A stretch of 24,000 nucleotides of DNA from Sporomusa sp. KB1 (lineage in GTDB: Bacteria > Bacillota > Negativicutes > Sporomusales > Sporomusaceae), in the NCBI RefSeq assembly GCF_007830295.1, contig NZ_VLKC01000002.1:3889546-3913545 (forward strand). Reading direction: 5' to 3'. Shown in pieces: positions 18,488 to 24,000 of the stretch. Made by a program: the position numbers and the translations under genes. The notes below the pieces were generated by a model that made no database searches, had not been told where the DNA came from, and worked only from the letters and a program-made list of their open reading frames with translations. Numbering within the stretch: position 1 is the stretch's first letter; the number at the start of each line of letters is the position of its first letter.

Positions 18488-18567
18488 GACTATCTGATTA
18501 TGAAACTTTAACAAAGAGGTATTCGATAACGAAAACTAACATAAACAAACATGAATAATTAATTACT

Positions 18568-18699: not shown

Positions 18700-18729
18700 T
18701 TGCCAATATAAACAAACAAATACTATAAT
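18700..18729 (+). promoter_or_regulatory. Sigma-A-type promoter for the WtpA-like gene, with the shared motif in its spacer
   Basis: TTGCCA (18700-18705), an 18-nt spacer, then TATAAT (18724-18729). The spacer begins with AATATAAACAAACA (18705-18718). Confidence 0.55.
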
Positions 18730-18753: not shown

Positions 18754-19743
18754 ATGAATCGTAATTTAATGAAACTAATGGGTCTTTTTCTCTGCGTAGT
18801 ACTCATTGGACTGGGGCAACAAAGCAGTTTTGCCGAGGAGAGCCCAAACCACCCAATTACGGAGGTTATTGTCTTTCATGCTGGCAGTTTAAGCGGACCA
18901 TTCCAGAAAGCGGCCGAAGCTTATGAAAAATCTCATCCAGATATCAAAATCACTTTAGAAGGAAGTGGCAGCCGGGAAGCCGCCCGGAAAGTAACGGAAC
19001 TGAAGAGACCATGTGACGTGGTTGCTTCTGCTGACTATGAAACTATTGATAATTTAATGATGCCTGAATATGCAAAGTTTAATATATTTTTCGCCCGTAA
19101 TAAAACAGTTGTAGCCTTTACCGACAAAAGTAAGTATGCTAATGAGATTACCAGTGATAATTGGTATGATATTTTATCAAGGCCAGATGTGCAGTATGGT
19201 CATACTGATCCGAATTTGGATCCTGGCGGCTACCGGGCAGTTCTGACATTGCAGTTAGCCGAAAAATATTATCATAAACAGGGCTTGTATCAAGCGCTGG
19301 TAAATAATTTTCATGAGTCTAACACTGTCAATGATGGAAAAAGTATCAAAGAAATGCTGAATTCAGGTCGGTTGGATTACTTCTTCTTTTATGAATCGTC
19401 AGCCAAACAAGGCGGCTATCACTATATTACCTTGCCGGTTGAACTCGATTTTTCTTCCTTGGATTATGCGAACTATTACAAGCAAGCAACACTGTCGCTT
19501 AATGGCAAAAAAACAGGCAGCACTGAACAAGTTTACGGACAACCAATAATTTATGGCCTTACTCTGGTGAATAACGCCCCACATTCCAAGGAAGCGCTGC
19601 AATTCATACACTTTCTTCTGACAGATGGACAAAAATATTTAAATGATGCAGGTTTTATTTCTATGAATCCGTTAGTTCGCACCAGGGAATTGCCTTACAT
19701 CCCGGCAGAATTAAAAGATTTAGTAAAGCCGTTCAAACAATAA
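18754..19743 (+). CDS. Periplasmic tungstate/molybdate-binding protein, WtpA/ModA superfamily (orphan; no adjacent permease or ATPase)
   Basis: RBS AAGGGGG. Sec signal peptide (MNRNLMKLMGLFLCVVLIGLGQQSSFA). VFHAGSL...GSGS...VVASADY parallels the ModA blocks VFAAASL...SSG...FISAD. The HTDPNLDPGGYR block resembles the WtpA-type oxyanion-binding motif, recalled from memory. Confidence 0.82.
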   Translation: MNRNLMKLMGLFLCVVLIGLGQQSSFAEESPNHPITEVIVFHAGSLSGPFQKAAEAYEKSHPDIKITLEGSGSREAARKVTELKRPCDVVASADYETIDNLMMPEYAKFNIFFARNKTVVAFTDKSKYANEITSDNWYDILSRPDVQYGHTDPNLDPGGYRAVLTLQLAEKYYHKQGLYQALVNNFHESNTVNDGKSIKEMLNSGRLDYFFFYESSAKQGGYHYITLPVELDFSSLDYANYYKQATLSLNGKKTGSTEQVYGQPIIYGLTLVNNAPHSKEALQFIHFLLTDGQKYLNDAGFISMNPLVRTRELPYIPAELKDLVKPFKQ

Positions 19744-19952: not shown

Positions 19953-20420
19953 TTAGCCGTTACAGGTGCAAGCGTCACCGCAAGTACAACTGTCGCCGCA
20001 TGAACAACCGTCAGTATTTGCAATCATGCTATCATTTTTTGAAATACTTACTCCCGCTGCGGAAAGCTCTTCTTGTTTCTTCAATTTTTTATTGTAGTTG
20101 TTTATCCAGCCAAACACATCGTTCAAAATCGGTATAAAACTTTGTCCGATATCTGTTAATGAGTATTCGACTTTTGGCGGTACTTCTTTGTATATTTCTC
20201 TAAATACTATTCCGTCCCGTTCAAGTTCCCGTAACTGTTGTGTAAGTATTCCTTGTGAAATATCGGGTATTTGTTTTTGAAGTTCACTAAACCTTCTCGT
20301 TCCCTCGCTTAAACGCCAAAGAATTGTGAATTTCCATTTACCTGTGACTAACCTTTGGGCAACTGTTAGTGTTGCATTAGTCACTGGACAAAGACCTCTA
20401 AGGTTTTGTGCTTTGGTCAT
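19953..20420 (-). CDS. HxlR-family (DUF24) winged-helix transcriptional regulator with a C-terminal metallothionein-like Cys-rich tail
   Basis: Core [27 protein letters not shown]...[31 protein letters not shown].....[11 protein letters not shown] is the HxlR signature. An extra ~45 aa ends in [19 protein letters not shown], with six Cys arranged as three CxC pairs. Confidence 0.85.
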
Positions 20421-20517
20421 TTCAAATTGCTTCCTTTCTCAATGGTACTATAAATAGTAGTATGTCATATAAAAGTGCCTACTTGTATTTTTATTTATTA
20501 TATTATACCATTTTAGC

Positions 20518-20571
20518 AAATATAAACAAACATAGACAATAATTATAAGTCGTTTATGTTTGTTTATATTT
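20518..20571. promoter_or_regulatory. Perfect 17-bp inverted repeat; candidate operator in the divergent hxlR-like / HMA promoter region
   Basis: AAATATAAACAAACATA (20518-20534), a 20-nt spacer, then TATGTTTGTTTATATTT (20555-20571), an exact reverse complement. The left arm overlaps the -35 region of a minus-strand TGgTATAAT extended -10 (20510-20502). The right arm overlaps the -35 region of a plus-strand TATAGT (20581-20586). Confidence 0.65.
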
Positions 20572-20611
20572 GTAGATATTTATAGTTTGGCACAGGGAGG
20601 AAGTGAAGCTA

Positions 20612-20821
20612 ATGACTCAAACCAATCAAATTATCCTGAGAATTGAAGGTATGTCATGCAGTATGTGCAAAGGTAAAGTGGAAAAAGCACTTAAAAGTAT
20701 TTCAGGAGTAATAAACGTAAGTGTTGATTTGGAAACAAAGGAAGCCATTATTGGTGGCTTGGCTAATCCTGCAGCGCTTGTTAAAGCTGTTGAAGAAATT
20801 GGATTTAAAGTTAAAAACTAA
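20612..20821 (+). CDS. Heavy-metal-associated (HMA) domain protein, CopZ-like metallochaperone
   Basis: 69 aa with a ferredoxin-like HMA pattern and metal-binding loop GMSCSMC (MxCxxC). No signal peptide. I prefer the ATG at 20612 (RBS AGGGAGG 11 nt upstream) to the GTG at 20603. Confidence 0.85.
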   Translation: MTQTNQIILRIEGMSCSMCKGKVEKALKSISGVINVSVDLETKEAIIGGLANPAALVKAVEEIGFKVKN

Positions 20822-20861: not shown

Positions 20862-23138
20862 ATGGCGAAAAACTTAACATGGAAACCATTTTGCAGTGTT
20901 ACACTTGCTATTGCCATGTTTCTATATGGAGCAGGTATTGCCGGGGCGGAAAATGCAGTGTCGCAATCAGACAGCACTCAGGTGTCCGAAGGTGATAAAC
21001 AGCAAAAACAGGATCAGGCAGCTGATAAGCAAGAACAGCACGAAAATAGTGATAGTTCGATTGCGGCGACTTCAACTGCGGCCAATGTTCCATTTACTGA
21101 GGTGGAGATTACTGCGGTGGAGGTTACTGCGGACAAGCAGAATAAACTGGCTATTGGCCAGCAACCCAACGCCGAAGGGATAAATAATTATGTAGTTACG
21201 AAAAGTTCTACCGGCAGTAAATCAGACGTTGCAAATAAGGATTTGCCGCAGTCGATTACGGTGGTCGGCCAAAAAATCATGAAGGAGCAAAATAATAAAA
21301 CAGTCGCCGATGCATTAACTAATGTGGCGGGGGTAACGGTAGCCCAAGCAGTTCCTAATTATTGGTACAACACAAGTTTTAATATCCGAGGTTTTGGTAA
21401 TGGTTTTTTGTCTGACAATGTATTTGTTAATGGGTTATGGGATCCGTGTATTTCAATGTCGGGATGGGTGGGAAATCTTGACCGTATCGAGGTATTAAAA
21501 GGTCCGGCCTCTGTACTGTACGGAAATGGTACGCCTGGAGGTTCAATCAACTATGTAACAAAAAAACCGTTGTCTGAACAGGCATTTACCTTGGGCACGG
21601 AGTTCGGCTCATGGGGATCCAAATCGACTGATATTGATATGTCCATTCCGCTAACTGATGATAAAAAATGGCTGTCCCGGACTATTATTCAGAATGCTGA
21701 TAATCATTCTTTTCAAAAGGACGTTAAATTCAAACGTTTCGACGGCAGCGTAATTGTGCAAGGCCAACCCCGGCAAGATACTGTGTACACTTTTGAAGTA
21801 CAGTTTCATGATCACGATGGTCCAACTGTTGGATTGCTGCCACTTACCGGTACAATAAATTCCCCCTATAATCTAGTTCCTTACGATGGGAATTATTATA
21901 ATCCAAATATAAAATTACATTATATAGGGCGCAGTATTTCGGCACAAATCGATCACCAGTTTAATAGTATTTGGTCCATCCGTTCGGCCTTCCGATATAG
22001 CAATGAAACCACAAATTTCTATTCGCAAGGAGGGTCGACTCTGAATCTCGATAATCTTACAGTCAATCAAGTTTGGCAGCATAGACTGATGCGCACCAGC
22101 GTTTATGCGTGGGATACGGCAGCAAATGCCAAATTTACTGCTTGGGGGCTTAAACACGATTTGACATTTGGTTTTGACTGGGCCCAATTTGATCAAAAAA
22201 TCCCCTATTATTATCGGGGCAATTTACCCAGCGTTTCGTTGTACAATCCTATTTTCACCAGCTCATTACCAACGAGGATTATGAATCCAATGAATAACTA
22301 TCATTCTTGGAGCAATCGATATGGGAGCTACATATCGGACATAATGGAACTTTCGCCCAAATTTAAGGTTGCTACAGGGGCAAGCTTTACCACTTTGGAT
22401 GGTGTCAGCAGCCATGATTCTGGCAAAGATTGGCGGGTCGGGGCGACCTATGAATTAACTCCAGGAGTTACCTTATTTACCGGCTACTCCACATCCTACG
22501 AACCACAAGGCTCTAAGCTTAGTGGTACTAAAACGATTTACTTTGAACCTGAAACCGGTAATCAGATCGAGGGCGGTTTGAAGGTAGATATAAGTAATCG
22601 CGCAAGTGTTACGTTAGCAAATTACCGGATCAATCGTGAAGATATGGTCTACGCTATTCCCGGAACGAACCCGCAAGAATATGAACAAATTGGCAAGCAA
22701 ACCAGCAAAGGGTTCGAACTTGATGCTAGCTACGTACTTCGTCCAGGCTGGAATCTGCTGGTCGCTTATTCTCATTGTGACGCTCGCGTAGTAAAAGACG
22801 CTACCTATAGTTCAGGCAGCGTGCTTCCCAATGTGCCGCTTAACTCCTTTAAACTTTGGAGTACATACGAATTTCAAGAAGGGCCTTGTAAAGGGCTGGG
22901 TTTTGGCGGCGGTTTGACTCGTGTCGGCAGCCGCGCAGTCGATTATGATAATAGCTTAGGTTGGATGGATGGCTATACTACGATTGACGCCGAAATACAT
23001 TACAAAATCAAAGATTGGCGTTACTCCCTCAACCTATATAATTTGACTAATGAGAAGTATTGGGCGTTAGGCAGTTCTAGTGGTGTTTACGCGGGAACAC
23101 CTAGAAGTTATACTTTGCGCGTAGAAAAGTCATTTTAA
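20862..23138 (+). CDS. TonB-dependent outer-membrane receptor (siderophore/metallophore-receptor type)
   Basis: RBS GAGGAGGGGG then ATG at 20862. Signal peptide (...AIAMFLYGAGIAGA-ENA). Plug-domain motifs TKSSTGSKSDVANKDLPQSITVV, NVAGVTV, IRGF, IEVLKGPASVLYG and PGGSINYVTKKP. A beta-barrel-like repeat region follows, with the terminal aromatic ...YTLRVEKSF. The ORF-track start at 20721 overlaps the HMA gene and lacks an RBS. Confidence 0.9.
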   Translation: MAKNLTWKPFCSVTLAIAMFLYGAGIAGAENAVSQSDSTQVSEGDKQQKQDQAADKQEQHENSDSSIAATSTAANVPFTEVEITAVEVTADKQNKLAIGQQPNAEGINNYVVTKSSTGSKSDVANKDLPQSITVVGQKIMKEQNNKTVADALTNVAGVTVAQAVPNYWYNTSFNIRGFGNGFLSDNVFVNGLWDPCISMSGWVGNLDRIEVLKGPASVLYGNGTPGGSINYVTKKPLSEQAFTLGTEFGSWGSKSTDIDMSIPLTDDKKWLSRTIIQNADNHSFQKDVKFKRFDGSVIVQGQPRQDTVYTFEVQFHDHDGPTVGLLPLTGTINSPYNLVPYDGNYYNPNIKLHYIGRSISAQIDHQFNSIWSIRSAFRYSNETTNFYSQGGSTLNLDNLTVNQVWQHRLMRTSVYAWDTAANAKFTAWGLKHDLTFGFDWAQFDQKIPYYYRGNLPSVSLYNPIFTSSLPTRIMNPMNNYHSWSNRYGSYISDIMELSPKFKVATGASFTTLDGVSSHDSGKDWRVGATYELTPGVTLFTGYSTSYEPQGSKLSGTKTIYFEPETGNQIEGGLKVDISNRASVTLANYRINREDMVYAIPGTNPQEYEQIGKQTSKGFELDASYVLRPGWNLLVAYSHCDARVVKDATYSSGSVLPNVPLNSFKLWSTYEFQEGPCKGLGFGGGLTRVGSRAVDYDNSLGWMDGYTTIDAEIHYKIKDWRYSLNLYNLTNEKYWALGSSSGVYAGTPRSYTLRVEKSF
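21102..21131 (+). repeat. Tandem 15-bp duplication inside the receptor gene, encoding VEITA-VEVTA
   Basis: GTGGAGATTACTGCG (21102-21116) is followed directly by GTGGAGGTTACTGCG (21117-21131), with one mismatch. Confidence 0.8.
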
Positions 23139-23178: not shown

Positions 23179-24000
23179 GTGACCGCTCAATCAAAAACAT
23201 TTTATCAAGAATTGTGGCACATCGTCCGTCCCTTTTGGCGGTCGAGGGAAGGCAGGATAGCAGCGGCAATGCTGTTAGGAGTGCTAATCCTGATTATTTT
23301 TCGTCTCTATGTAAGTGTTCTGATAAATGAATGGCAAAAACTTTTCTTTAATGCCATTCATTTATTGAATGCCGCTGAGTGTATCCACCAGCTTTTCCGA
23401 TTTGCGGGCTTGTCGCTGCTGTTTTTGCCGTTGCTTGGCTGTCAGAAATATTTACGGGGGCTTGTGCAAATTCGCTGGCGGCAATGGTTATCGGAACGCT
23501 ATGCTGAGAAACTGCTGAAAAACCGGAATTATTACCGTTTACAGTATGCATCAGGCGATACTGATAATCTTGATCAGCGTATTGCTGAGGATTTGCGGAT
23601 TTTTCCCGTGGAGACCATCAACATGATTTTTGGTTTTATTGATGCGATGGGATCACTTGCGGCATTTTCTGTTATATTGTGGAATTCGCCGGGATCACCG
23701 GAGGTAGCCGGCCTGGAAATTACTGGCTTTCTATTTTGGCTGGCTTTATTCTTTTCGTTAGCCGGTACATGGGTCAATCACCTTATGGGGAAAATTCTCA
23801 GTGTTTTTAACCGGGAACAACAGAAATATGAAGCTAATTATCGGTTTTCCCTAGTCCGGCTCCGAGAAAATGCTGAGGCTATTGCCGCATACGGTGGCGA
23901 ATGCCGGGAAATGGAAGCCCTCGCTGATCGGTTTGGTAGTATCGCCGGGGTATGGCAGAATATTTTGCGCCGGAATAGGATACTGGACTGGTTTTTCAGT
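23179..24000 (+). CDS. YddA-like ABC transporter (ABC_membrane_2 / SbmA-BacA-type TMD fused to an ATPase), 3'-truncated by the window edge
   Basis: Not in the ORF track, because it starts at a GTG and has no stop within the window. GTG at 23179 has RBS GAAGGAG 10 nt upstream, and the frame stays open for 274 codons to base 24000. Blocks LINEWQKLFFNAI, IRWRQWLSERY, NYYRLQY and DNLDQRIAEDLRIF match E. coli YddA (WLNDWNNDFFNAL, IRWREWLTDYY, NYYFTQIY, DNPDQRIAEDILL), recalled from memory. Confidence 0.82.
   Translation, partial: MTAQSKTFYQELWHIVRPFWRSREGRIAAAMLLGVLILIIFRLYVSVLINEWQKLFFNAIHLLNAAECIHQLFRFAGLSLLFLPLLGCQKYLRGLVQIRWRQWLSERYAEKLLKNRNYYRLQYASGDTDNLDQRIAEDLRIFPVETINMIFGFIDAMGSLAAFSVILWNSPGSPEVAGLEITGFLFWLALFFSLAGTWVNHLMGKILSVFNREQQKYEANYRFSLVRLRENAEAIAAYGGECREMEALADRFGSIAGVWQNILRRNRILDWFFS

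Follow-up and report, generated by a model that had tools for sequence, protein, structure and literature searches.

Organization of the hxlR-HMA intergenic region

The analysed stretch of Sporomusa sp. KB1 DNA, referred to below as the window, has a length of 24,000 nucleotides, in a genome of 6.06 Mb with a G+C content of 43.6%. A gap of 191 bp separates the minus-strand gene of an HxlR-family regulator from a plus-strand operon that encodes an HMA-type metallochaperone, a TonB-dependent receptor and an ABC transporter (Table 1). The ABC transporter gene is followed by a DUF364-like gene. The best NCBIfam match of the HMA protein is to NF047957 (CopZ family), with a score of 80.2 bits that lies just under the cut-off of 85. 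On the other side of hxlR the window contains an orphan gene for a WtpA-type tungstate-binding protein and a Moco/Tuco riboswitch, which leads two genes. Just past the window, downstream of the HMA operon (L066:3548-6492, corresponding to G000:C1:3915547-3918491), there are an MntP-like gene and the gene of a large serine recombinase on the opposite strand, which may represent the edge of an acquired island. The first and the last 137.5 kb of contig 2 of the same assembly (G000:C2:1-137475 and 701565-839039) are 100% identical, which indicates an untrimmed circular overlap and hence a replicon that is really 701,564 bp long; the overlap may inflate the contamination and duplication figures.

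Table 1. Features of the window that are considered in the analysis (positions are those of the window)
Feature	Position	Strand	Units, score or basis
Moco/Tuco riboswitch RF01055	18379-18497	-	52.6 bits
Two units near the riboswitch	18536..18555	+	CTAACATAAA, CAAACATGAA; between minus-strand TATAAT (18573-18568) and the Moco riboswitch
Two units in the wtpA promoter	18703..18722	+	CCAATATAAA, CAAACAAATA; unit match
WtpA-type tungstate-binding protein, orphan	18754-19743	+	TIGR03730, 306.9 bits (cut-off 242.75)
HxlR-family regulator, 155 aa, Cys-rich C-terminal tail	19953..20420	-	PF01638, 110 bits
27-bp HxlR-family box	20459..20485	-	CAAGTAGGCACTTTTATATGACATACT; invariant block in orthologue alignment
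hxlR promoter P1, extended -10	20502..20510	-	TGGTATAAT; alignment of five close orthologues
Left arm of the inverted repeat	20517..20537	+	units CAAATATAAA (20517-20526) and CAAACATAGA (20527-20536)
Right arm of the inverted repeat	20552..20572	-	units CAAACATAAA (20562-20553) and CAAATATAAA (20572-20563)
Possible degenerate third unit	20573..20582	-	TAAATATCTA; three-unit score 27/30, weak alone
Candidate HMA operon -10 hexamers	20575..20586	+	flank comparison of orthologues
HMA/CopZ-like metallochaperone, GMSCSMC motif	20612..20821	+	PF00403
TonB-dependent receptor	20862..23138	+	plug and barrel domains; TIGR01783, 269.9 bits (cut-off 223.5)
SbmA/BacA-type ABC transporter, 568 aa, extends past the window	23179..24000	+	domain match

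The intergenic gap contains an inverted repeat in which the 17-nt sequence AAATATAAACAAACATA (20518-20534) is followed, after a gap of 20 nt, by its exact complement (20555-20571). The perfect 17-bp repeat described in a sequence-only reading of this DNA is thus confirmed, and the perfect match in fact extends over 18 bp (20517-20534 and 20555-20572); a longer version of the arms, with one mismatch, matches at 20 of 21 positions around a gap of 14 nt. Such a match greatly exceeds what chance would produce. Each arm is composed of two tandem 10-bp units with the consensus CAAAYATAAR. The wide spacing between the arms had been taken as a possible sign of a dimer of dimers or DNA looping, but the anatomy is simpler, with head-to-tail 10-bp units, two or three on each side, that face each other across a gap of variable length. 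The palindrome ATAATTAT, which had been pointed out in the spacer, is present at 20539-20546, but it lies 2 bp off the dyad centre, and among the aligned orthologues neither this palindrome, nor the spacer sequence, nor the 20-nt spacing is conserved.

As single-stranded DNA the repeat folds with an energy of -15.6 kcal/mol, compared to -3.3 ± 1.6 kcal/mol for 200 shuffled sequences (z = -7.7). Perfect inverted repeats whose arms reach 17 nt or more, across a gap no longer than 40 nt, do not occur in a simulated genome (first-order Markov model of the genome, 1.5 Mb), and 237 such dyads are present in the actual genome, where many of the longest dyads are short-gapped, as judged by inspection. 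Several other readings of the repeat were considered and rejected. With respect to an intrinsic terminator, no terminator-like sites are found in the region 20300-20750; with respect to an RNA element, no Rfam match covers the repeat; and with respect to a dispersed repeat of the REP or MITE type, the exact 13-mer core occurs only four times in the genome, of which three copies are located within this locus.

The inverted repeat spans the cores of both divergent promoters, so that a single factor could control both. The left arm covers the -35 region of the hxlR promoter P1, at about -22 to -42, in agreement with the earlier assignment of its TGgTATAAT element. The right arm overlaps the -35 and spacer region of the HMA operon promoter and occupies about -22 to -42 of the likely start. 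This overlap had also been predicted, but the -10 hexamer originally assigned, TATAGT (20581-20586), is not conserved in the orthologues; the conserved position is held by the other candidate, GATATT (20575-20580), which directly follows the last unit and lies 6 nt nearer to the arm. The possible degenerate third unit would extend into this -10 region. At both divergent promoters the -35 hexamers are weak. A second element, the 27-bp box, is located between the -10 element and the start codon of hxlR, at approximately +10 to +36 of P1, and itself contains a promoter-like element (ATACAA-18-CATACT, with TGA before it).

Conservation of the repeat and of the 27-bp box

Orthologous loci were compared from a soil MAG (L001), from two members of the same genus (L048 and L049) and from metagenome contigs (L064, L060 and L061), all of which keep hxlR facing the HMA-receptor-ABC genes. 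As the sequence-only reading had expected of an operator, the repeat is conserved at the orthologous loci. Its position and unit phase are kept across orthologues in which the regulator is 78-91% identical, and the unit repeat is found at every close locus that encodes a Cys-tailed HxlR. The number of units on the two sides is 2+2 in the window, 3+2 in L064, 2+3 in L048, 2+2 in L049 and about 3+2 in L001. In the close orthologues the innermost opposed units are either 26-27 or 16 bp apart, distances which differ by about one helical turn, while the last unit on the hxlR side is fixed at 9 nt from the extended -10 element TG(G/A)TATAAT in all five. These comparisons support the inverted repeat as a real element of operator type that is conserved and positioned over both divergent promoter cores.

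The 27-bp box is better conserved than the repeat. It is nearly invariant at the five close loci and is still recognisable at the distant loci L060, L061 and L051, where the identity of the HxlR proteins is 56-69%. A search of 20 family genomes with a degenerate pattern of the box, allowing at most three mismatches, yields 67 matches, while the reversed pattern, used as a control, gives 0-2 matches per genome. Of these matches 33 lie directly upstream, and on the same strand, of 33 of the 121 HxlR-family (PF01638) genes, at 65-128 bp from the HxlR domains, against a chance expectation far below 1; these and the other cross-genome counts given below derive from related genomes, which are not independent observations. 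The clade consensus of the box is CAAGTAcGCAcTTTTTTGTTATATACT. In the Sporomusa sp. KB1 genome three of the five matches precede HxlR paralogues and two stand beside other genes. Many of the HxlR-family genes with a box adjoin genes that resemble those of nitroreductases, flavin reductases or OYE proteins; these neighbours were recognised by reading translated ORFs and not by an HMM search, as were the oxidoreductase-like genes mentioned below. With its recurrence upstream of HxlR genes, the box behaves as an operator of the HxlR clade with an embedded promoter, and it is probably the binding site of the Cys-tailed HxlR. Its location just upstream of the regulator gene resembles that of the operators of the HxlR/MarR-DUF24 proteins YodB, HypR and HxlR of B. 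subtilis. The inverted repeat, on the other hand, is unlike these operators, and the Cys-rich tail, which is retained in the HxlR orthologues, is without counterpart in the characterised members.

Two further loci show a different arrangement of the module. In L051 (G007:C1:541295-544723) the locus of the Cys-tailed HxlR is rearranged: a short N-terminal hxlR fragment retains the box and the HMA neighbour, and a Cys-rich gene, DUF134-like as judged by eye, is inserted ahead of the intact hxlR gene. In L050 (G009:C1:1157350-1160700) the gene of a tail-less HxlR is divergent from an HMA gene, which is followed by a two-HMA-domain fragment resembling the N-terminus of a CopA-type ATPase and subsequently by a TonB-dependent receptor gene. 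The layout of L050 hints that the HxlR-HMA module was originally tied to copper or another heavy metal.

Unit arrays at Mo/W genes and a candidate regulator

The 10-bp units are also found elsewhere, at genes for the uptake or use of molybdenum and tungsten. Within the window, the units CCAATATAAA and CAAACAAATA fill the 18-nt spacer of the wtpA promoter (TTGCCA at 18700-18705, TATAAT at 18724-18729), and the arrangement of two units between a TATAAT element and the Moco riboswitch recurs in two other genomes, G011 and G013. Unit arrays are present in five nearly complete genomes that have no Cys-tailed HxlR: before modD-modA in G006; between the Moco-riboswitch operon and modA, and before DUF364/DUF4213-modD, in G013; between modA and the riboswitch operon, and before the gene of a Peripla_BP_2 lipoprotein, in G011; before modA in G014; and before TonB-ExbB in G005. 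Another site in the Sporomusa sp. KB1 genome (G000:C1:4233067-4233125; L141:1568-1625) consists of four tandem units and an opposed unit and precedes an operon encoding TonB, a TonB-dependent receptor, a FecCD permease, a methyltransferase and a Peripla_BP_2 protein. By virtue of this array, a second TonB-dependent uptake system appears to be part of the same Mo/W box regulon.

A genome scan with two units, at 18 of 20 matching positions, gives 18 matches versus 14 for the reversed control, and a scan with three units, at 25 of 30, gives 13 versus 10. Since the A/T-rich, low-information unit thus stands barely above its control, support for it comes from comparative position and not from genome-wide enrichment, and the scan, having poor specificity, was not used to define the regulon. 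Some strong arrays are also seen at genes without an obvious link to Mo/W, i.e., the UbiA-ABC1 operon and a hydrogenase-like gene (G007/G009), and another array stands at a Crp-like gene (G009), the latter two genes identified by reading of translated ORFs; these matches may be due to chance. Five to seven weaker tandem units of the CAAAAATAAA type are located just downstream of a TTGTCA/TAATAT promoter, before the UbiA prenyltransferase-ABC1 kinase operon (L138, G007:C1:3045100-3045200, and G000:C2:71377-71426).

A candidate for the protein that reads the units is encoded in the same genome at 1.2 Mb from the repeat (G000:C1:5115044-5115976). This regulator of 311 aa contains an HTH_17 domain (PF12728, 54.8 bits), which also matches the excisionase model TIGR01764, and a PBP_like domain (PF12727, 239.4 bits); a sequence search of the PDB with this protein gave no match. 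A combination of HTH_17 and PBP-like domains is described as canonical for TaoR, a characterised regulator of tungsten-containing aldehyde oxidoreductase, in the passage of PMC11980592 that deals with it. The TaoR of Desulfovibrio vulgaris is reported to control a tungsten aldehyde oxidoreductase as well as the transport of tungstate (Rajeev et al. 2019, Environ Microbiol 21:784), and the title of that study (reference 40 in PMC11980592) extends the TaoR family to molybdate/tungstate transport.

Regulators with the HTH_17 and PBP_like domains are present in 18 of the 20 family genomes. At each of the 16 orthologous loci the regulator gene faces away from modA (11 loci) or from a gene for a modC-like ATPase (5 loci), and the shared intergenic region carries a three-unit array at approximately -120 to -90 from the regulator ATG. 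In G003 the HTH stretch of the regulator is near-identical, and its own promoter is without an array; in G015 no TaoR-type gene is found, and the modA contig ends 200 bp upstream of modA. Nine more distant homologues (L117-L125) show no modA or modC match in flanks of about 1.5 kb, and none of them has a clear tandem array. Among these, L123-L125 (from G009, G011 and G004) represent a paralogue with 47% identity, which is divergent from the gene of a 349-aa membrane protein and in G004 adjoins an aldehyde:ferredoxin-oxidoreductase-like gene, assigned from its N-terminus. The promoter of the paralogue carries other 10-bp tandem repeats, CGAAATAATA, which fits with family members reading 10-bp direct repeats. 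This paralogue is probably the true counterpart of TaoR.

The likeness of the candidate regulator to the TaoR family rests on the two-domain architecture and on the adjacency of its gene to Mo/W transport genes, with a predicted regulon of Mo/W uptake genes. For this family, the study of Rajeev and colleagues is also said to have predicted regulons in Firmicutes. In contrast to D. vulgaris, the host here is a diderm Firmicute of the Sporomusa type. Among the predicted targets there are moreover two operons for TonB-dependent uptake and the genes of an HMA chaperone and an HxlR-type regulator, and the putative operator consists of two arrays of 10-bp units in inverted orientation over two divergent promoters. 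A comparable logic is known from ModE and the Moco riboswitch of E. coli (modABC, moaABCDE), where a metal-replete regulator acts on transporter promoters and a Moco riboswitch belongs to the regulon. ModE differs, however, in its DNA-binding and sensor domains, and its site is a palindrome, versus the direct 10-bp units found here. Control of the repeat by ModE was ruled out, since a search for ModE (TIGR00637) found none in the complete genome, while controls match in 5 of 14 genomes. The 10-bp unit bears no evident resemblance to the consensus boxes of Fur, Zur, CopY, NikR and ModE. In its HTH type (TIGR01764) the candidate regulator resembles the excisionases, among them lambda Xis, whose molecules line up head-to-tail on directly repeated sites; by analogy, the spacing of the units by about one helical turn suggests an array of protein molecules on one face of the DNA. 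Excisionases differ from the candidate regulator in that they serve as architectural factors in recombination and have no sensor domain.

Interpretation of the inverted repeat

The explanation that we favour, and consider reasonably probable, is that the repeat is a double operator of a Mo/W-uptake regulon, read by the TaoR-type regulator, which would repress both promoters when metal is plentiful. The case for a Mo/W operator is built on the conserved position of the units and on their two-way dissociation from HxlR, discussed below. The sequence comparisons establish how repeat and box are built, conserved and distributed; the identity of the binding protein, the oxyanion signal and the direction of control are inferred. 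Each array covers the -35 and spacer region of the nearest promoter, P1 of hxlR on the left and the promoter of the HMA-TonB receptor-ABC operon on the right, and the inverted layout would simply place one array on each of two back-to-back promoters. In the proposed mechanism, the regulator senses tungstate or molybdate through its ModA-like PBP_like domain; in the oxyanion-bound form, a single protomer would then load onto each unit, all of them along the same side of the DNA, in the manner of an excisionase-type HTH protein, and RNA polymerase would be blocked at both promoters. The promoters of wtpA, of the Moco-riboswitch operon, of modA/modC and of a TonB-receptor operon would be blocked in the same way. 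Once metal becomes scarce, the regulator would depart and the uptake genes would be expressed. Binding of the Cys-tailed HxlR to its own 27-bp box, downstream of P1, would provide a second, separate input to hxlR. We infer repression from the location of the sites, which lie within the near-consensus wtpA spacer, downstream of the -10 element that precedes the riboswitch, and over the -35 and spacer regions at the present locus; the two promoters with weak -35 hexamers would allow activation instead.

One alternative follows the sequence-only reading: the neighbouring HxlR, here the Cys-tailed protein, would occupy the inverted repeat, either as a dimer of dimers or with looping of the DNA, and would in this way autoregulate its gene and repress the HMA operon. 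The signal in this alternative would be a thiophilic metal. Its gene is adjacent and divergent, its cysteine tail is conserved, and the repeat accompanies it at every close locus. However, the unit arrays occur in the five nearly complete genomes that have no Cys-tailed HxlR, whereas the tail-less HxlR-HMA loci of G009 and G018 keep the 27-bp box and have no CAAACATAA units; the co-occurrence of units and regulator expected of an HxlR operator is therefore not observed across the genomes examined. The element that HxlR genes have in common is the box, rather than the units. The arms do not provide two inverted half-sites at a fixed spacing for one dimer, but direct 10-bp repeats with a variable gap, which from established knowledge of the fold are ill-suited to a MarR-like dimer. 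In addition, a visual comparison of translations shows the putative recognition-helix stretch of the Cys-tailed HxlR to be like that of the paralogues associated with the box. The arrays without a Cys-tailed HxlR, the tail-less loci without units and the association of the box with HxlR genes together argue that the inverted repeat is not the HxlR operator, and we regard binding of HxlR to it as quite unlikely. Of the simultaneous control put forward earlier, the coverage of both promoter cores thus stands, while the assignment of HxlR as the binder is not supported.

The link between the TaoR-type regulator and the units is one of position, and the regulator of G003, with its near-identical HTH stretch, lacks an array in its own promoter. 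The arrays at the regulator loci could accordingly belong to the modA/modC promoters and be recognised by some other transcription factor that controls the Mo/W regulon, in which case the TaoR-type gene would just happen to lie beside modA/modC. We consider this rather unlikely, as the genome has no ModE, no second regulator gene stands consistently next to the arrays, and the type of sensor domain and the 10-bp direct repeats suit an excisionase-type HTH protein. The presence of units and box within 60 bp on the hxlR side, jointly conserved in five orthologues, with P1 overlapped by the arm and then followed by the box, would also fit a composite switch, in which the TaoR-type regulator on the units and the Cys-tailed HxlR on the box interact or act sequentially on P1, so that the W/Mo status is combined at the locus with another signal, picked up by the cysteine tail. 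However, the box lies about 100 bp from the HMA -10 element, a distance at which it is not obvious that HxlR would act directly on the operon; this arrangement seems unlikely. That the repeat has no regulatory role at all, and is instead an A/T-rich palindrome arisen by chance, a site of cruciform formation or recombination, or the remnant of a mobile element, is highly improbable. Although the region is A/T-rich and of low complexity, and slippage or gene conversion could produce the symmetry of the arms, the conserved position and phase of the units, the lack of a terminator-like tail and of an Rfam match, and a sequence that is not dispersed in the genome all speak against this.

The preferred reading, a double operator of a TaoR-type regulator, corrects an attractive but probably wrong assignment, in which the neighbouring regulator is the binder, and resolves one intergenic region into two separate control elements, each with a testable partner. 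In most respects the repeat would be an ordinary operator, working by analogy like a metal-replete operator of the ModE or TaoR type. The new details predicted from the sequence comparisons are the two opposed arrays of 10-bp units that span divergent promoters, and the addition of an HMA chaperone, two TonB-dependent receptor operons and the Cys-tailed HxlR to the predicted Mo/W regulon of acetogenic Sporomusa-type bacteria. For the HxlR proteins of this clade, the 27-bp box supplies a family-wide candidate site.

Formate dehydrogenase and aldehyde oxidoreductase make the supply of tungsten important to acetogenic bacteria of the Sporomusa type, in which no outer-membrane uptake route for W or Mo is known. 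In a more speculative extension, to which we assign a low probability, the repeat would be the control point of a W/Mo-regulated TonB-dependent import system, with the Cys-tailed HxlR, itself part of the regulon, feeding in a second signal, from a metal or a thiometallate, by way of its own box. If this were true, it would imply the uptake of metallophore- or thiometallate-bound W/Mo in an anaerobic diderm Firmicute, controlled by a two-sensor switch for which no precedent is known.
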